Assembly (NCBI GenBank): GCA_035530655.1
Contig: DATKUK010000098.1
Span: 4,652-68,651, forward strand
Direction: 5' to 3'
Source of the DNA: Phycisphaerae bacterium
GTDB lineage: Bacteria > Planctomycetota > Phycisphaerae > UBA1845 > DATKUK01
DNA: 64,000 nucleotides
A program made the translations under genes and the position numbers. Each line of letters begins with the position of its first letter. Positions within the stretch are counted from its first letter, which is position 1. Below the pieces are notes generated by a model. It made no database searches, was not told the DNA's origin, and saw nothing but the letters and a program-made list of their open reading frames with translations. Below, in pieces: positions 3,415 through 50,418 of the stretch.

Positions 3415-4746
3415 CTAGAGCAGGTTGGCCGCCAACTCCGCCAGCTTGCCGCGTTCGCCCTTTACAAGCTGCACATGAGCGGCCAACAGCTCGGCTCGGA
3501 AGTGGTTGACAAGATAGTTGAACCCGTTGCTGCCCGAATCGACGTAGGGATTGTCGATCTGCCAGGGGTCGCCGGTCAGCACGACCTTACTGCCCTCGGA
3601 GAGGCGGGTTATAACCGTCTTGATTTCGAGGGGGGTGAGGTTCTGCGCTTCGTCCACCACGACGAATTGATGGGCGATGTTGCGGCCACGGATGTAGCTG
3701 AGTGGTTGGACCTCGATCGTGCCGGCCTCCCATAATTCGCGCCAGTTTTTGCGCCCGGCGATGTCGCCGGCTGAGTCGAACAGGAACTCCAGCGTATCGA
3801 ACACCGGCTGCAGCCATGGGTAGAGCTTTTGCTCGATACCTCCGGGCAAATGGCCGAGATCTCTGCCCAGTGGCACGGTGGGACGACAGACCAGCAGACC
3901 CTTGTAGTTGCGACTGCGCAAGACGGCATGCAGCCCCGCCGCCAAGGCAAGAAGGCTCTTGCCTGTTCCCGCCTTGCCCATGATGGTGACCAACTGGATC
4001 CGGGTGTCGCGCAGCGCGTCCATCGCATAGTACTGCTGCTGATTGCGCGGGCGGATGCCGCACAGACCTTCCCCACTCTCCAGCAGAGCCTGGACCTGCC
4101 TGCAGTCGGCACTGATCCGCCCCAGCGCGGTGCGCCGGGCCCCGTCGCGGGGCTTCAATAAGACATACTCGTTGGGGTAGGCGACCACGCCTTCGGGCAG
4201 GGCGATGCTGCCGGCCGAGTCGAACTTTTCGACGTCCTCGCGCGCCAGGGCAAGCTCGATCTGCCCGGTGTATAGATCGCTCAGACCCACCCGGTCGGAC
4301 TCGTAGTCCTGGGTGCGCAGGCCCATGGCGTCGGCCCGTATCCGCAGGTTGATGTCTTTCGTGACGATGATGACGGGCACGTCGGGCTCGTCCTGCTGGA
4401 CGGTCTGGGCGATCCGCAGGATGTTGTCGTCGGCCAGCGTCGGGCGTGTTGTCCCCAGTTGGTCCATGCCGTCGCAGTACACCTTCAGCGTGCCGCCGCC
4501 GGGCAGCTTCACGCCGGCGGCCAGACCACCGGCTGCGGTGCCCCGAAGCTCGTCCAGCAGGCGCGATACCTGCCGGGCATTCTGGCCGCGATCCGACATC
4601 TCGCGCTTGAACTGGTCGATCTCCTGGATCACGTCGATAGGGATGATCACGGTGTTGTCCGCGAAGTGCGTCAACGACGTGGGATCGTGCAGCAGCACGT
4701 TGGCGTCCAGGACGTAGTTCTTACGCATGGAATTAAGTATAGACAC
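3415..4746 (-). CDS. PhoH-like ATPase with N-terminal PIN domain (YlaK-type)
   Basis: 443 aa. N-terminal PIN-like YVLDANVLLHDP...IPIDVIQEID. PhoH P-loop IMGKAGTGKSLLALA and Walker B FVVVDEAQNLTP. Confidence 0.85.
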   Translation of the reverse strand: MSILNSMRKNYVLDANVLLHDPTSLTHFADNTVIIPIDVIQEIDQFKREMSDRGQNARQVSRLLDELRGTAAGGLAAGVKLPGGGTLKVYCDGMDQLGTTRPTLADDNILRIAQTVQQDEPDVPVIIVTKDINLRIRADAMGLRTQDYESDRVGLSDLYTGQIELALAREDVEKFDSAGSIALPEGVVAYPNEYVLLKPRDGARRTALGRISADCRQVQALLESGEGLCGIRPRNQQQYYAMDALRDTRIQLVTIMGKAGTGKSLLALAAGLHAVLRSRNYKGLLVCRPTVPLGRDLGHLPGGIEQKLYPWLQPVFDTLEFLFDSAGDIAGRKNWRELWEAGTIEVQPLSYIRGRNIAHQFVVVDEAQNLTPLEIKTVITRLSEGSKVVLTGDPWQIDNPYVDSGSNGFNYLVNHFRAELLAAHVQLVKGERGKLAELAANLL

Positions 4747-34442: not shown

Positions 34443-36773
34443 TCACCCGACGTCGCGAAACTGCCGCTCGTACAACGTCTTGTACAGCGGGCAACTGGCT
34501 ACGAGCGTATCGTGGCTGCCCACCGCAATGATCTTGCCCTCGTCCATAACCACGATCTGATCCGCCTCGGCAATCGTGCTGAATCGATGCGCCACCACGA
34601 ACGTCGTCCGCCCGTGCATGATCTCGTGCAGCGCCTTCTGGATCTTCATCTCCGACTCGGAGTCCACCTGGCTGGTGGCCTCGTCGAAGATGAGGATCGC
34701 CGGGTCACGCAGAATCGCCCGGGCAATCGCCAGCCGCTGCCGCTGCCCGCCGCTGAGTGTCAGCGCCGAGATTATCGCGTCGTACCCCACCCCGACTTGC
34801 CCGTTGTGCTCGCCCTGCAGTTGCTGGATGAAGTCGTCGGCATAGGCAGCCCTGGCCGCCACCACGATTTGCTCGTCCGTCTTGTCCGGCTGGCCGTAGG
34901 CGATGTTGTTGCGGACCGTGTCGGTGAAGATCACCGTGTCCTGCGTCACCAAACCGATCTGACCTCGCAGGCTCGCCAGCGACACGTCGGCCAAGTCGGA
35001 TCCGTCAAAAAGCACCTGGCCCCGCTGCGGCTGGTAAAACCGCATCAGCAGAAGGCACAGCGTGGTCTTGCCCGACCCGTTCGGCCCGACAATGGCCGTG
35101 ACCTGGCCGGCTCGGACCTTCAGATTCACGCCGCGAAGGGCCGGCGTCTCCGGTCGGGCCGGATAGGCGAACCACACGTCACGAAACTCGATCCACTCCC
35201 GAAGCCTCGCCAGCGAGACGCGCCGCGTCGCCGTCTCCGGCGGCTCCTCCGAAGGCATGTCGACGACTGCGAACATTCGCTGGGCGGCCGCGTCGGCCTC
35301 CTGGAGGTGGTTGTTCACGTTGGCCAACTTGCGGATCGGGTCGAACATGGCCGCCAGACAAACCACCGACGCGATGAAGCTGCCGGCCAACCCACCCGCC
35401 GCAACGTCCTGCTTGAACACCAGGTATCCGGCAAACAGCACGAACGCTCCCACCGCCGTCACACCCACAAACTCCAGGATCGGTGAGGTGGCCGCGTCGA
35501 TCCGCGCGATCTTGAGTTGCTGGCGAAGAATGCGCCGCTGCTGGCGGAAAAAACGCACCCGCTCGCGGCGCTCGGTGTGGTAGGCCTTGACGATCTGAAT
35601 GCCGGCGATCTTCTCGTCCAACAGCTCGATCAGATGACCCCAGGCCATCAGCGACTTCTTCTGAGCGCGACGAATCCGCCGACCGAACTGCACGATCAGC
35701 ACCGCCGCCGCCGGCGTGGCTACCACCACCGACAGCACCAACTGCCAGTTCAGATACATCGCCAGCACGAACACCCCCACCGCCTTGAGCGGCTCGCGTA
35801 TCGTCTTGCCGAACAGCGAGCGCATGCCCTTGCGGATAACCTCCGAGTCGCGTGCAAAGCGCGACATCGTGTCGCCCGCCTGCTGTTGGCTGAACCACCC
35901 CATCGGCGCCTGCAATACGTGCGCGTAGGCCAGCGTCCGCATGTCCAGCAGGCCCCGCTCCGACACCAGTTCCACCATGTATTCGTGCGTAAACCGACTC
36001 ACCCCACCCAACAGCGAGAACACCAGCAGCGTGCCGATCACCAGCGCCAGCATCCGCATCCTGCTGACCAGCGTCAGCTCCCTCGGCAGCAGGGCCGCCA
36101 CGTCCAGCATGCGATGCTGACGCCATCCCAGCGACTCCGGCGTGATGTCCACCTGAGCTTGTCTGCCGTCGTCATACATCAGGTCGATCCGGGCTGGCCT
36201 GCCCTCCGGCAGCGCGCAGATGTGGCGGTATAGCTCCACATCCGTCCCGTGCTGCCCATTGATCGCGACGATCCGATCCACACGTGCCATACCGGCCAGG
36301 GGCGAGTTGGGATCCGCGTCGACCTTCAGCACTTTGATATAAGGCTTGGGCGGCACATCCTCGGGAAAGTCGCAGTCCAGCCGGTCCTCAGCGACGTGTC
36401 GGTACAGCCAGTCGCCCACCGTCTCATGCCGCGAGAACATCACCGTCAGGAACGGTATGATCGACGAGACAGTCAGGGTGTAGAAGATGCTCACGCCGAC
36501 CGCCGCCGCCAACCCCGTCGCCAGATAGCGGCGATGAGGCCAAATGTACCCCAGCGCACGGCGGAAGTACCGTAACCTAAGCTCTGAAACGTCTTTGCGC
36601 CTGCGGCTCAATGCAGCCAACCTCACAAGATCACTGGCGGACAGTCTACCGCCGCATCGCTCGGCTGTCACCGCAGCAGTCCGACCCGCCGCCCGAACGA
36701 CCGCTCTGCAGGTGATCGCGTCAGACTGCCCGCTGCGGGTCGCCCCTTGCGTTTCAAGCCTCCGAGAAAACAA
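34443..36773 (-). CDS. ABC exporter (fused permease-ATPase, MsbA-like) with a PDZ-like insertion in the first extracytoplasmic loop
   Basis: Type-I exporter TMD followed by an NBD with GPNGSGKTT, LSGGQRQRLAIARAIL and ILIFDEATSQVD. Between TM1 and TM2 lies IKVLKVDADPNSPLAGMARVDRIVAINGQHG...RIDLMYDDGRQAQVDITP. The true start is probably downstream of 36773; the N-terminal ~60 aa look non-native. Confidence 0.8.
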   Translation of the reverse strand: MFSRRLETQGATRSGQSDAITCRAVVRAAGRTAAVTAERCGGRLSASDLVRLAALSRRRKDVSELRLRYFRRALGYIWPHRRYLATGLAAAVGVSIFYTLTVSSIIPFLTVMFSRHETVGDWLYRHVAEDRLDCDFPEDVPPKPYIKVLKVDADPNSPLAGMARVDRIVAINGQHGTDVELYRHICALPEGRPARIDLMYDDGRQAQVDITPESLGWRQHRMLDVAALLPRELTLVSRMRMLALVIGTLLVFSLLGGVSRFTHEYMVELVSERGLLDMRTLAYAHVLQAPMGWFSQQQAGDTMSRFARDSEVIRKGMRSLFGKTIREPLKAVGVFVLAMYLNWQLVLSVVVATPAAAVLIVQFGRRIRRAQKKSLMAWGHLIELLDEKIAGIQIVKAYHTERRERVRFFRQQRRILRQQLKIARIDAATSPILEFVGVTAVGAFVLFAGYLVFKQDVAAGGLAGSFIASVVCLAAMFDPIRKLANVNNHLQEADAAAQRMFAVVDMPSEEPPETATRRVSLARLREWIEFRDVWFAYPARPETPALRGVNLKVRAGQVTAIVGPNGSGKTTLCLLLMRFYQPQRGQVLFDGSDLADVSLASLRGQIGLVTQDTVIFTDTVRNNIAYGQPDKTDEQIVVAARAAYADDFIQQLQGEHNGQVGVGYDAIISALTLSGGQRQRLAIARAILRDPAILIFDEATSQVDSESEMKIQKALHEIMHGRTTFVVAHRFSTIAEADQIVVMDEGKIIAVGSHDTLVASCPLYKTLYERQFRDVG

Positions 36774-37214
36774 GACTTACGTGGTAGCAGCGAAGTCGTG
36801 CTCGCCGTTCGGCATGCGTGGCCGGACGGGGTCAGGGGGGCGCCGACATATCACATCCGTATCACCCCACGTTCCGCGCCGAACTCGCGGAACCGTATTG
36901 CCGCCATACCCTCTCGGGCAGGAGCGCGAGCATACGCGAGGCCCCCAGACCCCTTGCATATCCAAACCGGCGCATCTACGATACGGTTATATCGTTTTGG
37001 GGCGGGAGCATTATCCGCCACCGGGAGGTGTTCCGCCGGACCTTGGGCGAAGGCGGGTATTACCAAGACGTGAAGCGTTCGCAGCACGTCTCACCGGGAC
37101 GCATGACAGCGTGAGACGGTCGACGGGGCACTAACCAGCGGAGTTGACTCGCGCGGCGGGGCGGGGTGCTTGGTGCCTGAGGAGAACTGGGAAGTCGCCA
37201 CTGAGGCAAAACAC

Positions 37215-40200
37215 ATGCGTGTGTTCATCAGCCACTCGTCGAAGGACAAGCCCCAGGTGGAGGTGCTTGCCTTGGCTCTTCGCGAGCGGGGCATTGAAGT
37301 CTGGCTGGACAAGTGGGAGATCGGGCCCGGGGACGACATCGTTGCCCGGATCAACGCCGGGCTGGAGGAGGCCACGGCGGGGCTGATCGTCTTTTCCAAG
37401 CACTCGCGAGAAAGCCGATGGGTCGAGGCGGAGACAAGCTACCTCACCTACGCGCGCATCAACGAGGGCAAAGTCCTGATTCCGGTCAAGGCCGGGGGCG
37501 ACGCCTTTGTCCCCCCGCTGCTGCGACCGCTGGCTTACCGCGGGATTGAAGAGGTTGAGGCCATCGCTGACGCTCTCCAGGGGAGAAGGCCAAGCAGACC
37601 ACCTGCTCGGACAAGGGACGAGCACAGAGTCGAGCGGGTTGTCATAGCTCTGCAACGCGAGGGGCAAGCCGGTGTTCAAGTGGACGTGCACATCGGCCAG
37701 GAGCAGTACGCGAGCCGGCCTCTGGCCGCGCTTCCGCGTGAGGTAACCAGAGGGCGCGACGCGTTTCTTCGGGGCTTCCGCTTGGGGCTTCGCCGGGATC
37801 CGGCCACGGCCGAGCGCGCGTCGCTCGAGTCCTCGGTGGTCGAGCTGGGGCGTGCGCTCTGCGGAGTTTGCCTGCCCGGCGATGCCGCTGAAGCCTTGCT
37901 CAACATGGTGGACGGCTGCCCGGTCGGGACGACGGTGGAAGTGTGGTTCGAGGCCAGTGACCCGGAGCTGCTCGGGCTGCCGTTCGAGACTCTTCGGCTG
38001 CCCGGCGACCGCCTGCTGGCGACCGTGCCTTCGGTGGTAATGGCGCGCCGGCCGATCGGGCTGCAGCACGCATACCGTCAGCCCCTGCCCGGCCCGCTCA
38101 AGATCCTCATCGCCGTGGCTGCTCCGGATGAAGAGCTGACCACCTCGGTGGTGCTCGACCAGGAGCGGGAACTCCAGAACATCCTGGACGCGACCGAGGC
38201 GGCGCAGCGCAGTGAAAACGTCGAGGTCCGCATCCTCGAGGTGGGTCATCCTGAGGTGATGGCGGCGGCGATAGAACGAGACTCTTATCACGTCCTGCAC
38301 ATCTCTTGCCACGGCATGCCGGGCAGGCTGGAACTCGAGGATGAGGAAGGTCGCGCCGTGCTCACAACCGCGGGGGAGCTGCTCGAGCCCATCCGCGAGG
38401 CGGGGGGCCCGCTGCCGCTGGTTTTCCTGAACGCCTGCCATGGTGGCGTCGAGGGTGGGCAAACCGCGAGCCTGGCCGAGGAGCTTCTGCGCGCCGGCGT
38501 TCCCTGCGTGCTGGCCATGCAGACGTCGGTGAGCGACTACTACGCAACCCAACTCGCCCGCGCATTCTACGAACACCTGGCACGCCGGGAGATCTTGCTG
38601 CCGAGCCGGGCCCTGGCTCAGGCCCGAAAGGACCTCGAAAAGGCGCGGCGCCGAGCGGTCGAGCGAGGCGAACCGATCGAGCAGACCCAGCCCGAATACG
38701 CCACCGCCACGCTCTTTGTCGCAGGCGACCACGAGCCGCAGCTTGGCGACTTCGCGCGCGACAAGGAGCCCCTGAGCGAGCGCCCCGTACACGACATGAC
38801 CGGCCCGGTCCCGCAACTTCGCATCGACGACCTGATCGGCCGCCGCAACGAGCTGCGCCAGACGCTCCGACCCCTGCGCGACCAGACAACCGCACATGCA
38901 GGCGTGGTGCTCACCGGAATCGGCGGCGTGGGGAAAAGTGCGGTCGCGGGCCGGGCGATGCGGAGACTGGCGGAGAGCGGCTTCCTTGTGGCCGCCCACG
39001 TCGGGCCGTGGGACCTGGAACGGATCGCCGTCGCCGTGGGCACCGCGCTGGTCCGCGACGGTCGCGATGAGCTAAAGGCGCTCGGTAAGATTCTCGTGCA
39101 ACCGAGCCTCGACGACCGCGTGCGCCGGCAACTGCTTGCGGGGCTTCTCGCGGCCGAGCCCCTGGTTCTCGTCCTTGACGACTTTGAGATGAACCTCACG
39201 GAGGGCGGCGCGGCCTTTCGCGACCCGGCCGTCGCCGAGTACCTCGGCGAGCTTCTTGAATCTGCCCGGCGCGGTCGTCTGCTGTTGACCTGCCGCCACC
39301 CGGTGCCCGGCACCGAGGCGCACCTGCGGCGGATCCGCATCGGTCCCTTGAGTCCCGCCGAGAGTCGCAAGCTCCTGCGGCGCCTCGACCAGCTCAGCGG
39401 GCGCGATCCCGCGGAACTCGCCCTGGTGCTGCGCGTGATCGGCGGGCATCCCCGCATGCTCGAGTTTCTCGACGGGGTGCTCCGGGGCGGGACGGGACGT
39501 CTGCCCCACGTCACAACGAAGCTGCGCAAGACGATGCAGGCCGCCCAGGTCGATCTCGACGGCGGGTCCCGGGATCTGGAGGAGGGTATTCAGCAGGCGC
39601 TGCTCCTGGGGGCCCGCGATGTGCTGTTGGAAGAGCTGCTCGACATCAGCCGGGCCGAGGACTTGGAGAGCGTGCTTCTCCAGACCGCCGTGTCGAACCT
39701 ACCCGTCAGCCCTGCCGGCCTGGCGCACATGCTGGCCGATGGCCCGGCCGAGAATCTCGCTGCCGTCGAGAGCAGGCTGCATCGTTTGGAGGAGCTTTCC
39801 CTCATGTTTCGCTTCCCTGACGGGTCGGGGTGGGTGCACCGTTGGACGGCCGAGGGCCTCGCCCGACTCGTGCCCGATCAGGAATACCGCTGGCGTGCCA
39901 ACCGCGCCGGGCGCTACCGCTCGTGGCGGGTCGAGCACGAGAGCCACAGTCTCGAGGACGGCTGGGAGGCCGTGCGAAACCACCTCGTCGGCCGCGACTT
40001 CGACGCGGCAACGGGGGTCGCCTTCACCTGTTTCGATGCCCTCCGCCGCTTCAACCAAACCACCGCCATTGCCGCCCTGGCGGGTGAGGTGTTGGAGGTT
40101 CTGCCTCTGGATCATCCGAACTACGGGCCCGTGGCCGACCAGGAGGGGCAAGCCCATCTCGCCCTGGGGTTCGTAACGCTTGCGGTCGAGCGGTACGAAA

Positions 40201-40577
40201 GCCTTTTGCGCCTTCACAAGGAACGAGCGGAGTCCGAGCCCGATCGCGCGGACTACCAGCGGGACCTGTCGGTGTCGTACAACAAGGTGGGCGACCTGTA
40301 CCAGAGTTTGGGCCAGGGCGAGAAGGCGAGGGAGGCCTACCTCAACTCGCTGCAGATTGCCGAGCGCCTCGCGGAGTCCGAGCCCGATCGCGCGGACTAC
40401 CAGGTAGACCTGGCCAGCTCGTTGGTAAGGGTGGCGCTAACGGGAGCGAGTGAGCGGCAGAAGGGACTCAAGCGCGCACTGTCGATCTTGACAGCTCTGC
40501 GAGACCAGGAGCGACTGGCACCCGTTGACGAGGGCAAGATCGCCGCACTCGAGCAGATGATACAGGGCGGCGGCTAG
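37215..40577 (+). CDS. TIR - CHAT (caspase-like protease) - STAND P-loop NTPase - TPR multidomain protein
   Basis: ATG 37215 (MRVFISHSS; GAGG about 8 nt upstream). Numbering is from the track start at 37170. TIR is aa 16-~135: FISHSSKDK...GIEVWLD...LIVFSKHSRESRWVEAE. CHAT is ~aa 265-520, with HISCHG (His381) and FLNACHGG (Cys423). NTPase: GIGGVGKS (583-590), LVLVLDDFE (665-673), GGHPRML. The C-terminal TPR region has duplicated AESEPDRADYQ.DL units. Confidence 0.85.
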   Translation: MRVFISHSSKDKPQVEVLALALRERGIEVWLDKWEIGPGDDIVARINAGLEEATAGLIVFSKHSRESRWVEAETSYLTYARINEGKVLIPVKAGGDAFVPPLLRPLAYRGIEEVEAIADALQGRRPSRPPARTRDEHRVERVVIALQREGQAGVQVDVHIGQEQYASRPLAALPREVTRGRDAFLRGFRLGLRRDPATAERASLESSVVELGRALCGVCLPGDAAEALLNMVDGCPVGTTVEVWFEASDPELLGLPFETLRLPGDRLLATVPSVVMARRPIGLQHAYRQPLPGPLKILIAVAAPDEELTTSVVLDQERELQNILDATEAAQRSENVEVRILEVGHPEVMAAAIERDSYHVLHISCHGMPGRLELEDEEGRAVLTTAGELLEPIREAGGPLPLVFLNACHGGVEGGQTASLAEELLRAGVPCVLAMQTSVSDYYATQLARAFYEHLARREILLPSRALAQARKDLEKARRRAVERGEPIEQTQPEYATATLFVAGDHEPQLGDFARDKEPLSERPVHDMTGPVPQLRIDDLIGRRNELRQTLRPLRDQTTAHAGVVLTGIGGVGKSAVAGRAMRRLAESGFLVAAHVGPWDLERIAVAVGTALVRDGRDELKALGKILVQPSLDDRVRRQLLAGLLAAEPLVLVLDDFEMNLTEGGAAFRDPAVAEYLGELLESARRGRLLLTCRHPVPGTEAHLRRIRIGPLSPAESRKLLRRLDQLSGRDPAELALVLRVIGGHPRMLEFLDGVLRGGTGRLPHVTTKLRKTMQAAQVDLDGGSRDLEEGIQQALLLGARDVLLEELLDISRAEDLESVLLQTAVSNLPVSPAGLAHMLADGPAENLAAVESRLHRLEELSLMFRFPDGSGWVHRWTAEGLARLVPDQEYRWRANRAGRYRSWRVEHESHSLEDGWEAVRNHLVGRDFDAATGVAFTCFDALRRFNQTTAIAALAGEVLEVLPLDHPNYGPVADQEGQAHLALGFVTLAVERYESLLRLHKERAESEPDRADYQRDLSVSYNKVGDLYQSLGQGEKAREAYLNSLQIAERLAESEPDRADYQVDLASSLVRVALTGASERQKGLKRALSILTALRDQERLAPVDEGKIAALEQMIQGGG

Positions 40578-40804
40578 GTCGTGGCACGTCGGTCCAGTAT
40601 CGAACGGCGGCGGAACCGATCGGTACGCGCAACGCAGGCCCCTTCCCCTATCGCATTGTAATTCCGCTAAAGGCAACAGGTTCTGCGGGAACCTGCGGCC
40701 GGGTGCACAGTTGGCCCGGCCCAGGACTGTTGCCTCAGATAAGCCTAAGCGCGTCGCATGGCCTCCTGAGCTCTTTGAGACGCACGTGACGCTTCGGCTG
40801 TGTT

Positions 40805-41254
40805 TCAAAGACCCGCCCGATCCAGACGGTGAATGAAGCTCTGCTTCCTGGCGTGTCGGCTTCGGATTTCTTGCGTGTAAACGGCAAATCGGCTCGTTTG
40901 CTTCGCCAGCGACCAGCAGTTCATCCCGATTAATGCCTTGGGCGACGAGAGCGCCACCTCGACAACCTGCTCGACGATCTCCGAGAAGAACTTCCGCGGC
41001 TCGCCGTGAGCACAATAGTAGGGATACCAACTGATGGCGGGAACCCCACCGTCATTGAATCGGCGAATGATCTGCCGAACCCATACGTCGCTGTATCCGA
41101 CCCGCCAGGCGATCTCGGCGTTGGACACGCCACCGCCACTCAGCAGAATGACGCGGGCGTGGCGACTGTTGACAGGATTGGTGCACTGGCGTTTCATACG
41201 ATGCAGCTTCTGACGCTCATACGGGTTGGGCCTCCGTGCCCTGACTTTGACCAT
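40805..41254 (-). pseudogene. IS630-family transposase remnant (N-terminal HTH part only)
   Basis: 149 aa. ...RHARVILLSGGGVSNAEIAWRVGYSDVWVRQIIRRFNDGG... plus a second HTH-like segment. The ORF stops where the DDE domain should begin. No inverted repeats were found. Confidence 0.6.
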
Positions 41255-41386
41255 TGCAGGTCTCCTCGTGATGAACTGCGGTGCTTCTCAACACGCGGAG
41301 ACCCTATATATTGCCCATAACCCGTGGGCGCAAGTGCCTGTCTTAACAGCAATGACGACGACATAACTCTCAAACCGAAAGCGGCA

Positions 41387-42616
41387 CTAGTCGGCGTGTG
41401 GCGCGAAAGGCGCTTCGTACTCCACGCGCAGGTCGTTCTCGCCGACTTGCAGCGGGTGGGTGATATTCGCACGGACGGCGAGGTGGCGCTCGCCCTGGTC
41501 GATCACGTAGCCGCTGGAGGGACACGGGCTGAGCGGCTGGCCGTTGAAGAGCAGGGCTTTGATGCGGGCCCGTGGGTCGAGGCGGAGCTGTAGGACGATG
41601 CCGGCCGGCGGATCGGCGATCTTGTTGTTGACCTGCACGCGGACGGTGGCGACGTGGCCGGGGTCGGCCGGGAGCCGCGAGACGTTGAAGATCCCGCCCT
41701 CGAGGATGGCGCGGGCGGTCTTGCGGCGGTTGACGCGGCGCTGCCGGCAGTCGGCGCCGTAGGCCATGAGGCAGCCGACGGGCGAACCGGCGATCAGGTC
41801 GCAGGGATATCCTCGGTAGGGCTGGTGCCGGTCTTGGCGGTCGCCGACGCGCACCAACGTCGAAAGCCGCGCCACGGCCGAGCGGATCGAATCTTCGAGC
41901 GGGTAGTAGTTCTCCGTCGTCTCGACGGTGTAGGTCAGGGCGTTGTCCTCGGCCAACAGGCGCAGGAAGAGCGAGTCCTGGTGCTGCTCGCCGGCGCGCA
42001 GCGGGACGATGTGACAGAAACGCTGCGGGTAACCGAGGGCCTCGGCTGCGGCGTCCATCTCGTGGCTGACGGCCAGGCTCGCCAGGAACAGCCCGTTGCG
42101 GCCGGCGAGCATGGGGACGTATTGGCTGTCGCCGATCGCACCGCCGGCCAGGCCGTGGACATCGGCGTAGCAGTCGGGGATCCAGTGCTGTGCGACGGCG
42201 TAGGCGGCGCGGGCCTCGGGCGTGGTCGGTTCCTTGCCGAGCGGAAAGGCCTGGTAAATGTTGACGTCCTGCGCGTTGTGGTAGGTGTTGCGGACCGCGC
42301 CGTCGGGGTTGAGGCAGGGGCATATGAGGATCACCTGCGTGCGCAGATGTCGCGAGCCGTCGTTGGTGAGCAGCCAGCGGGCCAGGGCAAGGACGGCAGC
42401 GCGGCCGACCTCCTCGCTTCCGTGCGTGCCGCCGGTGAAGAAGGCGACGGACTTCTGCTCGACGGACACAGCCGGGTCGGTAAGAGTGAGCAGCGGGATG
42501 GGTCGTCCCTCAAACGACTTGCCCATGTCCTCGAACGTGCAGTAACCGGGTACCTGGCGGGCAAGGGCCTGGCATTCACTCATGACCTCTTCATAGGTTG
42601 GCCTGGTTGCGGGCAT
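41387..42616 (-). CDS. M14-family zinc carboxypeptidase
   Basis: 409 aa. GKSFEGRPIPLL, FFTGGTHGSEEVG (HxxE zinc ligands) and CLNPDG are in M14 order. The overlapping P/R-rich ORF 41370..42323 is a shadow. Confidence 0.8.
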   Translation of the reverse strand: MPATRPTYEEVMSECQALARQVPGYCTFEDMGKSFEGRPIPLLTLTDPAVSVEQKSVAFFTGGTHGSEEVGRAAVLALARWLLTNDGSRHLRTQVILICPCLNPDGAVRNTYHNAQDVNIYQAFPLGKEPTTPEARAAYAVAQHWIPDCYADVHGLAGGAIGDSQYVPMLAGRNGLFLASLAVSHEMDAAAEALGYPQRFCHIVPLRAGEQHQDSLFLRLLAEDNALTYTVETTENYYPLEDSIRSAVARLSTLVRVGDRQDRHQPYRGYPCDLIAGSPVGCLMAYGADCRQRRVNRRKTARAILEGGIFNVSRLPADPGHVATVRVQVNNKIADPPAGIVLQLRLDPRARIKALLFNGQPLSPCPSSGYVIDQGERHLAVRANITHPLQVGENDLRVEYEAPFAPHAD

Positions 42617-48273: not shown

Positions 48274-50418
48274 ATGGCAAGGATAGTGTGTCGTGTGATG
48301 ACCGGCGTTGCTCCTGTCCTGATATGGTCGGCCACGCTGGCGACGGACGGTCCTGAACCGACGACAGCCCCTGGATCGGAGACGCTCACGCTGGTGGCAG
48401 CCGGCGCGGCGGTGACGGTCGACCCGGCTGGCGGCAAGGTCACATCCATCCGAGTGCGCGACGCGGAGGAAATGGCGACGGAACACCCTGCTGGCAGCGA
48501 GAAGCCCTTCGGCTACCTCGAAGTGATCGACCTGCGCGACCACCGCCGATACAATCCGGTGCTGGGGAAACCGCTCATCGTGAAGTTGAGCGTGTCTGGC
48601 GAGGCTGACGAGGGGGCAGCCTGCTTCGAGCAGCAATACGACGGGGCGCCGTTTGCGGTCCGCCAGACCCTCCGCGAGACGCCAGCGGGCGTGCGGTGGG
48701 AGGCGACGCTGCGACTCCTGGAGGGTCAGGACCAGAACCGTTCCGTTCGGATCAACTGGGTGCTGCCCCTGCCTTACGGTTGGCACTTTTGGGGACCCAA
48801 CTCCGTTGCGTCCAGCCAGACCAATGGCGTCACGCCCTACCGCTTCGTCTACGGCCACACCGACCCAGGTACCTGGGCCACGGTCATCCCGCTGGTAGGT
48901 GTGTGGGGCGAGAAGGCGGGCGCGGCGGTTTTCTCGCCTCCCGACGTACGCAAGTGCCAGATCAGCTTCGACGTGTTCACCCAGGACTGCCTCGACGCAG
49001 GCAGGGGCGTCGTCCGCCAGACCCAGGACTTGCAGAGCCTGCGCGTCGCGCACCACATGGTCGGTCTGCGTCCGGGCAAGGAATTGCGCCTGGCGATCTG
49101 CATCGCGGGCACGCGGGCGGACTGGCGCAGCGTCCTGGGCCACTACGTGAACGCTTACCCGGAGCTGTTCGAGCCCGCCCCGGCAGCGCGGAAGTACGAG
49201 GGGCTCTATGGCATAACCTCGCCGGCAGCTTGGGTCCACGACGGCGACCACCGTCGTACGAGCAGATTCCTCTCGGCCGTGCGGGCGACCTGCGTGGAGG
49301 TCCACGCCCACTTCCTCGAGTACGGCTATTACATTGACGACGACGTCGTCGCTAACCCGGACAAGGAGTACCGGTGTCGACCGCACGATTGGAAGCCCCT
49401 CACGTATGCCGGCAACCGCAGGATCTTCGGCGAGATGCTGGCTTGCGGCGCCGCACCGTTTTTGTACTTCCATAACGTCCACGCCCGACCGGAGACGGTG
49501 GCCAAGCACTTCCCCGGATTGGTGGCGTTCGATGAACGTGGCGAACCGCAGAACGTCTACCGGGGCGAATGGGCCGTCGCCGCTCAGGTGGATAACGCCT
49601 TCGGTCGCCACCTCATCGACCAACTCCACCGACTGATAAGCGCCTACCCGGAGGTGCCCGGTTTCTTCGTGGACAACTATTCCGGGCAGCGGATCGACTT
49701 CGCTCACGATGACGGCGTGACGATGGTGCACAATCGGCCGGCGTATGACTTCAACCGCAACCTGCAGGATGTCGGCACAGAGTGTCTGCGAATCGGGCGC
49801 GAGGCGGGCAAAGTGATGATGGTGAACAAGCTCGCCACGATAGAGAGTGCGAAGGGCGCGGACATGGTGCTTGTCGAAGCACTGGACCCGCAAACATTCG
49901 TGGTGCACGCCTTCGCCTGTGTGAACCGCGCGTTCTTTCCGTTCGGGCCGGACCGGTCCCAGGGCGAAGAGGTGGAGGAGCATCTGCTTCAACTCTTACT
50001 GATTTGGGGCGGCACGCCGGCCGTCCGACCGCGCGAGCACCTGGCCCTGCTTAGCGCCTATCGCTCGCTGACCGACGCGCTCATCGGGAAGCGCTGGGTG
50101 TTCGACGAAGACCCCCTCACGTTGCCGGCCGGCTATGAGGGTCAGATCTTCCGCATCGATCCGCACGCGCCGCACGCGGGCGACGTCGTGGTGACGGTGG
50201 TCGACCCGAATCGCTCGTGGAAGGACGGCAAGTTCAGCGAAGGCGCAATCGTGACCGTCCGCTTGCCCGAGGCTGCCGAATTGAGCAAGGCGACCTGGCT
50301 GTCCGTTGAGCGATGGGACCAGCAGCCCACGACCTGCCAAATCGAGCGAACGGGCCGATCCCTGAAGATTCATCTGCCGCCGGTCGGCGCCGTCGGCATC
50401 CTGCGCCTCAGTCGATGA
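48274..50418 (+). CDS. Large secreted hypothetical protein (possibly glycan-active; family not recognised)
   Basis: 714 aa with a signal-like N-terminus and protein-like composition. The antisense 669-aa ORF 47983..49992 is R/H/V-rich shadow. Confidence 0.6.
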   Translation: MARIVCRVMTGVAPVLIWSATLATDGPEPTTAPGSETLTLVAAGAAVTVDPAGGKVTSIRVRDAEEMATEHPAGSEKPFGYLEVIDLRDHRRYNPVLGKPLIVKLSVSGEADEGAACFEQQYDGAPFAVRQTLRETPAGVRWEATLRLLEGQDQNRSVRINWVLPLPYGWHFWGPNSVASSQTNGVTPYRFVYGHTDPGTWATVIPLVGVWGEKAGAAVFSPPDVRKCQISFDVFTQDCLDAGRGVVRQTQDLQSLRVAHHMVGLRPGKELRLAICIAGTRADWRSVLGHYVNAYPELFEPAPAARKYEGLYGITSPAAWVHDGDHRRTSRFLSAVRATCVEVHAHFLEYGYYIDDDVVANPDKEYRCRPHDWKPLTYAGNRRIFGEMLACGAAPFLYFHNVHARPETVAKHFPGLVAFDERGEPQNVYRGEWAVAAQVDNAFGRHLIDQLHRLISAYPEVPGFFVDNYSGQRIDFAHDDGVTMVHNRPAYDFNRNLQDVGTECLRIGREAGKVMMVNKLATIESAKGADMVLVEALDPQTFVVHAFACVNRAFFPFGPDRSQGEEVEEHLLQLLLIWGGTPAVRPREHLALLSAYRSLTDALIGKRWVFDEDPLTLPAGYEGQIFRIDPHAPHAGDVVVTVVDPNRSWKDGKFSEGAIVTVRLPEAAELSKATWLSVERWDQQPTTCQIERTGRSLKIHLPPVGAVGILRLSR

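Follow-up and report, generated by a model that had tools for sequence, protein, structure and literature searches.

The window analysed here is a stretch of 64,000 nucleotides (nt) from Phycisphaerae bacterium (contig DATKUK010000098.1, positions 4,652 to 68,651 of the forward strand), and the gene with which this work is concerned occupies positions 37215 to 40577 of it. This gene encodes a single polypeptide of 1,120 amino acids (aa), in which a TIR domain, a CHAT/separase-type protease, a STAND NTPase and a TPR-like repeat arm follow one another, and it is referred to below as the TIR-CHAT-STAND-TPR gene. The gene and its internal features are as follows (AF2, AlphaFold2; pLDDT, predicted local distance difference test).

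37215..40577, plus strand: TIR-CHAT-STAND-TPR gene, 1,120 codons and stop, unbroken translation (Pfam domains; full-length AF2 model)
37215..37583, plus strand: TIR domain of the AbTIR/PdTIR/TcpB type, residues 1-123 (Pfam TIR_2, PDB matches)
37431..37433, plus strand: codon of the candidate catalytic Glu73 (aligned to the W-x-x-x-E Glu of AbTIR, PdTIR and the 7uxr TIR)
37584..37628, plus strand: flexible Pro/Arg-rich TIR-CHAT linker, residues 124-138 (pLDDT <50 at 125-136)
37629..38729, plus strand: CHAT/separase-type protease module, residues 139-505, pseudo-caspase half and then active caspase half (Pfam CHAT; sub-model; Foldseek)
38310..38312, plus strand: codon of the predicted catalytic His366 (conservation)
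38436..38438, plus strand: codon of the predicted catalytic Cys408 (conservation)
38817..39869, plus strand: STAND NTPase, residues ~535-885, with P-loop, helical and winged-helix domains, NB-ARC/AP-ATPase-like (Pfam AAA_16, Foldseek)
38916..38939, plus strand: Walker A, GIGGVGKS (Lys574), residues 568-575 (conservation)
39162..39188, plus strand: Walker B, LVLVLDDFE (Asp655, Asp656, Glu658), residues 650-658 (conservation)
39288..39296, plus strand: TCR, residues 692-694, candidate sensor-1 Arg (conservation)
39441..39455, plus strand: GGHPR, GxP-like motif of the helical domain (conservation), part of GGHPRML at residues 743-749
39834..39845, plus strand: VHRW, residues 874-877, candidate MHD-like motif of the winged-helix domain (conservation)
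39876..40565, plus strand: all-helical TPR-like arm, presumed sensor, residues 888-1117 (helix-pair repeats in the AF2 model; PDB TPR matches, viz. bacterial KLC-like and LGN)
40221..40508, plus strand: two 48-aa repeat units, residues 1003-1050 and 1051-1098, the second degenerate (period 48, consensus RLAQAEPDRADYQRDLSVSY...)

Domains and conserved residues of the protein

The conservation of individual residues was read from two sets of proteins, viz. the 120 best homologs (close homologs) and 145 further representatives of 35-60% identity (distant members). The TIR_2 profile (PF13676) covers residues 3-108 in the Pfam profile search (87.5 bits against a cutoff of 28, E 1.2e-24), and the matches of this domain in the PDB, viz. 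7uxr, 3h16 (PdTIR), 7uwg and 8g83 (AbTIR), have E-values of 1e-9 to 1e-20. The closest TIRs by sequence (AbTIR, 8g83/7uwg; PdTIR, 3h16; TcpB, 4lqc; and the 7uxr TIR) include experimentally active bacterial NADase TIRs, and Glu73, which closes the SRWVEAE motif (residues 67-73), is a Glu in 109 of the 111 close homologs that have a residue at this column. From this likeness in sequence, the TIR is a candidate for being NADase-competent. The linker that follows it measures 18-25 aa in 106 homologs; its sequence varies, with R, P, A and G abundant, and a conserved cleavage motif was not seen in these 106 linkers.

The CHAT profile (PF12770) matches residues 242-481 (Pfam; 95.6 bits against a cutoff of 24, E 4.7e-27). 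A separate sub-model of residues 125-520 (pLDDT 90.4) was matched by Foldseek to SAVED-CHAT (8tl0, 2e-12), to Csx29 over ~390 columns (TMq 0.53-0.57), to separase and to DdvA (8rot, 1.6e-8). On the strength of these alignments, of which that to Csx29 takes in its CHAT module, residues 139-505 are read from the model as one complete two-lobed CHAT module; an extra domain between the TIR and the CHAT domain, which was considered for residues 139-241, is ruled out, these residues being the pseudo-caspase half of the CHAT/separase module. His366, which lies in HISCHG (residues 362-367), is kept in 120 of 120 close homologs and 104 of 110 distant members, and Cys408, in FLNACHGG (residues 404-411), is kept in 120 of 120 and 109 of 116 of them, respectively.

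For the STAND module, AAA_16 is matched at residues 540-690 (Pfam; 39 bits against a cutoff of 32.6, E 1.6e-9), and the Foldseek matches of the full-length model include the STAND-TPR protein PH0952 (6mfv, 4e-12), CED-4 (2e-7), NRC2/3/4, RPP1, SAVED-CHAT (8tl0) and Csx29. In the Walker A motif, G568, G570 and G573 are present in 120 of 120 close homologs, and residue 574 is a Lys in 119 of 120 of them and in 121 of 125 distant members; D655 and E658 of Walker B are each found in all 120. R694 is invariant in the alignment of the close homologs and kept in 127 of 130 distant members, H745 is found in 120 of 120 and P746 and R747 each in 119 of 120 close homologs. Within VHRW, R876 and W877 are invariant and H875 is kept in at least 90% of the close homologs (distant members: H875, 104 of 124; W877, 126 of 127), and we regard this motif as a candidate MHD-like motif by its sequence. 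We liken TCR (residues 692-694) to the RNBS-B 'TTR' of NB-ARC, and Walker A, Walker B, TCR, GGHPR and VHRW together are taken by us to be an NB-ARC-like motif set. With the Pfam profiles, NB-ARC (PF00931) gives no match at E<=1 and NACHT (PF05729) reaches 14.2 bits, below its cutoff of 26.7; among the tabulated homologs, a precomputed PF00931 is present in P0103 only and PF05729 in P0103, P0009, P0065 and P0067. Since both profiles are sub-threshold, the assignment of the STAND clade rests on the fold and on the motifs. Over the distant set, the His/Cys dyad, Walker A and B, R694 and H745 are ~95% conserved, and the conservation of these catalytic and nucleotide-binding residues indicates that purifying selection acts on the switch as well as on the two enzymes.

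The C-terminal arm is short in this protein, and TPR_12 (residues 1019-1069, 23.6 bits against a cutoff of 30.1) and TPR_10 are both below their Pfam cutoffs in it. In homologs P0002-P0120, the C-terminal repeats follow a strict 48-residue period with the unit consensus RLAQAEPDRADYQRDLSVSYNKMGDLYRALGQGEQAREAYLKSLAIAE, and the number of these units ranges from 0 to 13 among the 120 homologs, with 2 in the window gene. The AF2 model of the whole protein, based on 70 homologs, has a pLDDT of 88.5 and a predicted template modelling score of 0.70, with disorder limited to the 124-138 linker and a loop at 191-195. Most of the homologs are 1,200-1,560 aa long; however, a truncation of the window gene is ruled out by homologs of 1,119-1,127 aa (P0006, P0038 and P0039), which align with it end to end, and the length differences are due to variation in the number of the 48-aa repeats.

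A first-pass annotation of this DNA, made from its letters alone, had described one uninterrupted open reading frame (ORF) of ~1,120 aa with these four modules in this order, viz. a TIR_2-type domain with a candidate catalytic Glu, a CHAT domain with an intact His/Cys dyad, a STAND module with Walker A, Walker B and a GxP-like motif, and C-terminal TPRs with duplicated AESEPDRADYQ units. All of these descriptions are borne out: the translation of 1,120 aa is free of stops, TIR_2, CHAT and AAA_16 are matched above their cutoffs and are followed by the short TPR tail with its sub-cutoff profiles, the duplicated units are real (residues 1005 and 1053), the quoted motifs all sit at the nucleotide positions that were given for them, and the catalytic Glu, His and Cys, whose conservation it had named as a check, are near-invariant over more than 200 homologs, as are Walker A, Walker B and the sensor-1-like, GxP-like and MHD-like motifs. 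It had also named Csx29 for a structural comparison, and the CHAT folds of the two proteins match. However, its residue numbers E88, H381, C423 and K589 are 15 too high, because they were counted from TTG 37170 rather than from ATG 37215; the correct numbers are E73, H366, C408 and K574.

Two sets of observations were made on the repeat units at the level of DNA. The public contig L081 (ena:ERZ27256808:k141_1455253) is identical to the window over 23,363 nt bar 4 nt, at 40347 and 40358-40360 in repeat unit 1; these changes (S1045 to A and A1049 to R) coincide exactly with the two positions at which the 48-aa unit is dimorphic (S/A/D and A/R, respectively), and a 171-nt unitig in soil runs is an exact match to the window version of this unit. 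In four soil-metagenome assemblies, the word depth relative to flanking single-copy sequence is ~4-fold for the TPR units (40230-40400) and ~5-fold for an IS630-like fragment (40900-41175), and the assemblies break at both places. The raised depth and the breaks indicate that both stretches are multi-copy in the genome or in the community.

Size, distribution and modular N-terminus of the family

A word-indexed search retrieved at least 235 homologs, of which the top 120 all score more than 1,000 bits, and most of these 120 combine TIR_2, CHAT and AAA_16, some with TPRs as well, and align to 95-100% of the query at 45-73% identity. In an exhaustive search of 1.84 billion cluster representatives, 977 clusters were found at E<=1e-30, 7,119 at E<=1e-10 and 31,448 at E<=1e-3, the last figure being inflated by TPRs; the full architecture is present in at least 100 clusters at 45-73% identity. 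Genome matches and clusters together place the family in at least 10 phyla. The genome matches come from Acidobacteriota, Gemmatimonadota, Chloroflexota, Planctomycetota, Bacteroidota, Actinomycetota, Myxococcota, Eisenbacteria and Cyanobacteriota (including Cyanobium), and also from Alphaproteobacteria and Betaproteobacteria, where they include the cultured Variovorax rhizosphaerae and Azohydromonas aeria as well as Accumulibacter and Zoogloea. In their source records the homologs bear generic annotations such as 'TIR domain-containing', 'CHAT domain-containing' or 'tetratricopeptide repeat protein'. The two-effector STAND architecture, which had at first been regarded as unusual, is thus that of a large family.

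The comparison of these sequences indicates that CHAT-STAND-TPR is the constant core of the family and that the N-terminal module is swappable. Some close homologs open directly at the CHAT module or have N-terminal TPRs, and P0013, P0033 and P0047 have no N-terminal effector and retain the His/Cys dyad. In distant members, whose alignment starts from about query residue 200 (as in the actinomycete loci), TIR_2 is replaced by a SEFIR-type TIR, a ParA-like domain plus SEFIR, Trypsin_2 (a trypsin member is P0202), or domains without assignment. N-terminal extras of 500-620 residues with no Pfam match are present before the TIR in P0154 (1,645 aa) and instead of the TIR in P0197 (1,884 aa). Paralogous CHAT-STAND-TPR genes encoding 1,400-1,660 aa lie beside the homolog in L028 (4801-9783, plus strand), L022 and L071 (5256-9545, minus strand), the hosts with such adjacent paralogs being Ca. 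Accumulibacter, a Holophagae metagenome-assembled genome and Sphaerisporangium, and these are local gene duplications of the NLR-like kind.

Start codon, flanks and accessory status of the gene

The features flanking the coding sequence are listed below.

36612..37214, no strand: divergent intergenic region, presumed promoter region, shared with the msbA-like gene (gene calls)
37203..37206, plus strand: GAGG, ribosome-binding-site-like, 8 nt before ATG 37215 (read from the sequence)
40805..41254, minus strand: 149-aa helix-turn-helix ORF, remnant of the N-terminus of an IS630-family transposase (NCBIfam transpos_IS630; Pfam HTH_23, HTH_29)

The longest ORF over the gene, as called mechanically, opens at TTG 37170. 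The true start, as judged from the sequence, is ATG 37215, because GAGG lies 8 nt 5' of it and the homologs whose N-termini were read open there with MRVFISHS. The non-coding gaps around the gene, earlier put at 440 and 230 nt, measure 441 nt upstream, counted to the msbA-like ORF in its longest form (603 nt if the called start of that gene is used), and 227 nt downstream. A search with Rfam gave zero matches for a regulatory RNA around the gene, no match to the sigma-70 consensus was found on the plus strand of 36612..37214, and consensus scans for promoters and terminators around the gene gave nothing useful on that strand. The antisense ORFs at 37131-38999 (minus strand, 622 aa), 38618-39529 (minus strand) and 39699-40217 (minus strand) should not be interpreted as genes; they are high-GC artefacts, as similar antisense ORFs recur at the homolog loci. 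The GC content of the gene (0.66-0.69) is slightly higher than that of its flanks (~0.63), a difference too slight for compositional foreignness to be informative.

The order of genes in this region is lpxB, rpsB, tsf, pyrH, an msbA-like exporter, the TIR-CHAT-STAND-TPR gene, the IS630 remnant, an M14 peptidase, an S41 peptidase, acetyltransferases and APH, with genes for metabolism and the cell envelope in the remainder of the window. As a whole, the window is ordinary chromosomal DNA of a soil bacterium, and the complete gene was found in six soil-metagenome runs. The 149-aa ORF downstream matches positions 1-84 of the 299 of the transpos_IS630 model (E 1.4e-7), which is below the cutoff, so that the IS630 remnant proposed in the first-pass annotation is plausible, with weak support. 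Elsewhere in the window, a 714-aa ORF at 48274-50418 (plus strand) has a coding-type GC content at third codon positions (0.81) and no Pfam or NCBIfam match, and a 443-aa fusion of PIN_4 with a PhoH-like ATPase, of nuclease/ATPase type, is encoded at 3415-4746 (minus strand).

Six metagenomic contigs of close relatives (L083-L087 and L094) include an msbA-like gene whose product is 87-94% identical in amino-acid sequence; in four of the six, lpxB-rpsB-tsf-pyrH is also present, wholly or in part, with its order unchanged and at 91-99% identity. In these contigs, no match to the TIR-CHAT-STAND-TPR gene was found within 1.1-9 kb upstream of msbA (tblastn, E<=1e-10), and the sequences diverge immediately upstream of msbA, where L083 has a divergent M14 peptidase and L086 and L094 have a ~1,010-aa GH123-like protein. 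The region upstream of msbA (window 34443-42616 was compared) is therefore a local variable region, and the gene is accessory, since close relatives with the flanking synteny lack a match at the same site. The break in synteny, the adjacent insertion sequence (IS) fragment and the identity of 45-73% across phyla point to a probable horizontal acquisition of the gene. A scan of viral contigs for phage or prophage carriage gave one distant CHAT domain only, the family being essentially absent there, and this result is taken as neutral. No cas genes were present among the genes examined around the TIR-CHAT-STAND-TPR gene.

The gene also stands alone, as had been noticed at the outset: clustering of every ORF lying up to 10 kb from the homolog at 37 loci brought out no conserved partner gene. 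The recurrences near these loci were the tandem or adjacent paralogs (L022, L028 and L071), antisense-ORF artefacts and an extracytoplasmic function (ECF) sigma factor. In 3 of the 37 loci, viz. L001 (9006-9575, minus strand), L030 (7744-8355, minus strand) and L056 (a 206-aa minus-strand ORF 1,874 nt upstream), the homolog is preceded at a distance of 0.4-1.9 kb by the ECF-type sigma-70 gene in divergent orientation; Sigma70_r2 and r4 were confirmed for the L001 copy, and three members of the neighbour set match Sigma70_r2. This neighbour, and the likeness of the CHAT module to the DdvA anti-sigma factor (8rot), may be a coincidence or a hint of sigma-factor coupling in a subset of the family.

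Interpretation of the protein as a probable NLR-like receptor

We interpret the protein, with a probability of about 0.6, as a bacterial NLR-like immune or cell-death receptor that is built on an NB-ARC/AP-ATPase-like STAND NTPase and has two N-terminal outputs. At rest, the ADP-bound NOD and the C-terminal TPR arm would hold the protein monomeric and inactive. The trigger, which is most likely a phage protein, with another invader- or stress-derived ligand also being possible, would bind to the TPR arm and bring about nucleotide exchange and oligomerisation of the NOD. The oligomer would gather the N-terminal domains, whereupon the TIRs would join into composite active sites that cleave NAD+, with depletion of NAD+ or products of the cyclic ADP-ribose (cADPR) type as the result, and the CHAT protease would be switched on by induced proximity and would cut cellular proteins, possibly the protein itself. 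As an outcome, the infected cell would arrest its growth or die (abortive infection). That such a trigger exists, that the protein oligomerises, that both enzymes are active and that they serve immunity is inferred by us from STAND/NLR biology, viz. from Avs, TIR-NLR, the plant TNL resistosomes and the apoptosome.

The behaviour of the gene, with its patchy distribution, swappable effector, variable repeats, tandem paralogs, absence from relatives and an IS remnant nearby, is typical of NLR-like defence genes. Several observations weigh against the receptor interpretation. The gene lies in a housekeeping neighbourhood in the window (lpxB, rpsB, tsf, pyrH and the msbA-like gene). The 125 nearest ORFs at the 37 homolog loci belong to 144 Pfam families that include housekeeping enzymes, and with PADLOC they gave single matches only (DarG, RT, PycC-like, mad3 and PDC-M50A), these being raw counts from a simple ORF caller that carry no matched background rate; the enrichment in defence islands, proposed earlier as a check, is thus neutral in its outcome, single defence matches being scattered among many housekeeping families. 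No Avs or bNACHT model of PADLOC 2.0 matched the protein, and the match to TIR-NLR is limited to the TIR. Further, identity among the 48-aa units is 75% within a protein and 63% when proteins from different phyla are compared. Such uniformity is unusual and is not what one would expect of a specific sensor that evolves fast, and the window copy has just two of these units.

Three wirings of the two effectors were compared, and the one in which they act in parallel is favoured, because members of the family lacking a TIR keep the CHAT dyad. The same members bear on a second reading, that of a self-processing 'effector launcher', in which the CHAT domain would be a built-in maturation protease that cuts the flexible linker after STAND oligomerisation and frees the variable N-terminal effector; the freed TIR would then act alone, e.g. 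by assembling into active TIR filaments. This reading agrees with the constancy of CHAT-STAND-TPR beside an N-terminal module that varies (TIR_2, SEFIR, Trypsin_2 and others), and with the disordered Pro/Arg-rich linker of 18-25 aa that separates the two. However, the effector-less proteins P0013, P0033 and P0047 retain the His/Cys dyad, so that in them CHAT must have another substrate, the linker is without a conserved cleavage motif, and plant TIR-NLRs switch on their TIR without cleavage, which we also count against it. Autoproteolytic deployment of effectors has been proposed for constant-caspase systems by Kaur et al. (PMC7159879, PMC8195603), and Csx29 and SAVED-CHAT are specific processing enzymes (bioRxiv 10.1101/2023.06.23.546230; PMC9729208). 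On balance we consider this reading unlikely. If it were true, sensing, proteolytic maturation and the release of a TIR, SEFIR or trypsin warhead would be combined in one chain, a bacterial counterpart to an apoptosome that drives caspase maturation, here coupled to a TIR output of the resistosome type.

It is still less probable that the protein is a non-immune regulatory protease or cell-fate switch of the HetF or DdvA kind, which would cleave a regulator, e.g. an anti-sigma factor or a division protein, on an endogenous or environmental cue. The partial NCBIfam match to the HetF cell-division CHAT protein (1.5e-9), the resemblance of the CHAT module to the DdvA anti-sigma factor (8rot, 1.6e-8), the divergent upstream ECF sigma-70 gene, the housekeeping context in the window and the absence of a defence-island signal at the 37 homolog loci would all suit such a role. 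However, the sigma-factor neighbour is present in 3 loci only, the gene is accessory, patchy and missing from close relatives, and an NADase-type TIR together with swappable N-termini of toxic type suits conflict systems better than housekeeping regulation.

The remaining reading, implied in the first-pass annotation, is a fused logic of the type IV Thoeris kind, in which the TIR would make a cADPR-type signal that switches on CHAT in the same or neighbouring molecules and STAND-TPR would gate the TIR only, and although N7-cADPR from a TIR does activate a separate caspase-like protease in type IV Thoeris and the catalytic residues of both TIR and CHAT appear intact here, it is disfavoured and we give it little weight, for the dyad persists in members that have no TIR or have a trypsin instead, so that a TIR product cannot be a general requirement for CHAT activation, no nucleotide-sensor domain (SAVED, SLOG or Macro) was detected with Pfam or PADLOC, and the protease is of CHAT/separase type with no Thoeris protease model of NCBIfam (2026) matched.

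Comparison with known systems

The matches of the protein in PADLOC 2.0 and NCBIfam 20 are at the level of domains only (PDC-S66, SAVED_TIR and ThsB for the TIR; SAVED_CHAT and HetF for CHAT; and TIR-NLR), and a literature search for the fused TIR-CHAT-STAND-TPR architecture gave nothing specific and no name for it. The earlier statement that no named defence system fits is thus upheld, and the protein is no member of Avs1-5, bNACHT, TIR-NLR, type IV Thoeris or Craspase.

Among the nearest of these is TIR-NLR, a validated single-gene TIR-STAND-TPR anti-phage system of P4-like satellite hotspots in E. coli (Rousset et al. 2022, PMC9122126; PADLOC PDLC03015); proteins of this kind and Avs proteins are both validated as anti-phage (PMC9122126; PMC12803255). 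The window protein shares with it an N-terminal TIR, a central STAND module and C-terminal TPR-like repeats in one polypeptide encoded by a stand-alone gene, and a TIR activated by oligomerisation is presumed for both. However, it is 1,120 rather than 824 aa long, TIR-NLR has no protease domain and is borne on mobile elements in E. coli, and the likeness in sequence is confined to the TIR (PADLOC E 0.023). Similarly, PDB entry 9m0n, an 824-residue TIR-bearing 'tetratricopeptide repeat protein' which we presume from its length alone to be TIR-NLR, matches residues 2-96 of the window protein only. With Avs and bNACHT it has in common the layout of effector, STAND and repeat sensor, single genes, swappable N-terminal effectors and a patchy distribution; it differs from them in having two tandem enzymatic domains, and near-identical 48-aa repeats in place of a diverged sensor.

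In type IV Thoeris, N7-cADPR made by a TIR activates a separate caspase-like protease (bioRxiv 10.1101/2024.10.24.620036; PMC13243611). Here too a TIR enzyme is coupled with a protease of the caspase superfamily, and Thoeris provides immunity by killing the cell. However, Thoeris is a two-gene operon with a diffusible signal and has no STAND or TPR module, whereas the window protein is a single polypeptide whose TIR is dispensable in sister proteins. Its protease, being of CHAT/separase type, is set apart from the Thoeris caspase by type and not by direct comparison of the two, and the Thoeris protease models of NCBIfam (2026) do not match it. With Csx29 (type III-E Craspase) and SAVED-CHAT (type III-B/CBASS), the window protein shares the fold of a pseudo-caspase plus an active caspase and the conserved His/Cys dyad. 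Those proteases are activated by Cas7-11 and target RNA or, via SAVED, by cyclic oligoadenylate, and they cleave dedicated partners encoded next door; the window protein, in contrast, would be activated by STAND and has no conserved partner gene. In Craspase, moreover, the TPR is N-terminal to CHAT and Cas7-11/gRAMP and Csx30 take part, whereas the order in the window protein is CHAT-STAND-TPR.

The general class to which the window protein belongs is that of the 'apoptosis-like' conflict proteins, in which STAND/AP-ATPase and TPR modules are joined to TIR, caspase or CHAT domains, all in one chain. Surveys of this class already cover bacterial STAND/AP-ATPase-TPR proteins that bear a TIR or a caspase as effector (Kaur et al. 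2020, PMC7159879; Kaur et al. 2021, PMC8195603), 'all-in-one' NLRs whose N-terminus is TIR2 or CHAT (Dyrka et al., bioRxiv 10.1101/2020.01.06.895854) and a TIR plus a caspase on STAND-GT4 proteins (PMC8195603); a CHAT+TIR target of a diversity-generating retroelement has also been mentioned (PMC10907252). In the passages of PMC7159879, PMC8195603 and bioRxiv 10.1101/2020.01.06.895854 that were consulted, the TIR-CHAT-STAND-TPR family is neither singled out nor named. The stress in these surveys is on multicellular bacteria, whereas the family is found also in Cyanobium, Accumulibacter, Variovorax and Acidobacteriota. This kind of system is therefore already known from comparative genomics, and the fusion itself is no categorical surprise to specialists.

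The family is abundant in soil and aquatic bacteria of many phyla and would enlarge the catalogues of defence systems. To our knowledge, the characterised bacterial STAND/NLR-like defence proteins have one effector domain each, and type IV Thoeris, with its two proteins and diffusible signal, is the one characterised system of a TIR plus a caspase. The question posed by the family is whether its two effectors are parallel, sequential (the protease releasing the TIR) or redundant against phage inhibitors, and its natural variants (TIR-less, SEFIR and trypsin) form a comparative series for studying the coordination of two death effectors by a single oligomerisation platform. The nearest counterparts in eukaryotes are the plant TIR-NLR resistosomes (RPP1 and Roq1) and the CED-4/Apaf-1 apoptosome, whose NOD fold is similar, the TIR output resembling that of the resistosome and the caspase-family output that of the apoptosome. 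However, the eukaryotic systems use either a TIR or a recruited caspase, on separate proteins and with LRR or WD40 sensors, whereas the TIR-CHAT-STAND-TPR proteins carry a resistosome-type (TIR) and an apoptosome-type (caspase-like) output together on one NB-ARC-like switch, with a TPR arm as the presumed sensor.

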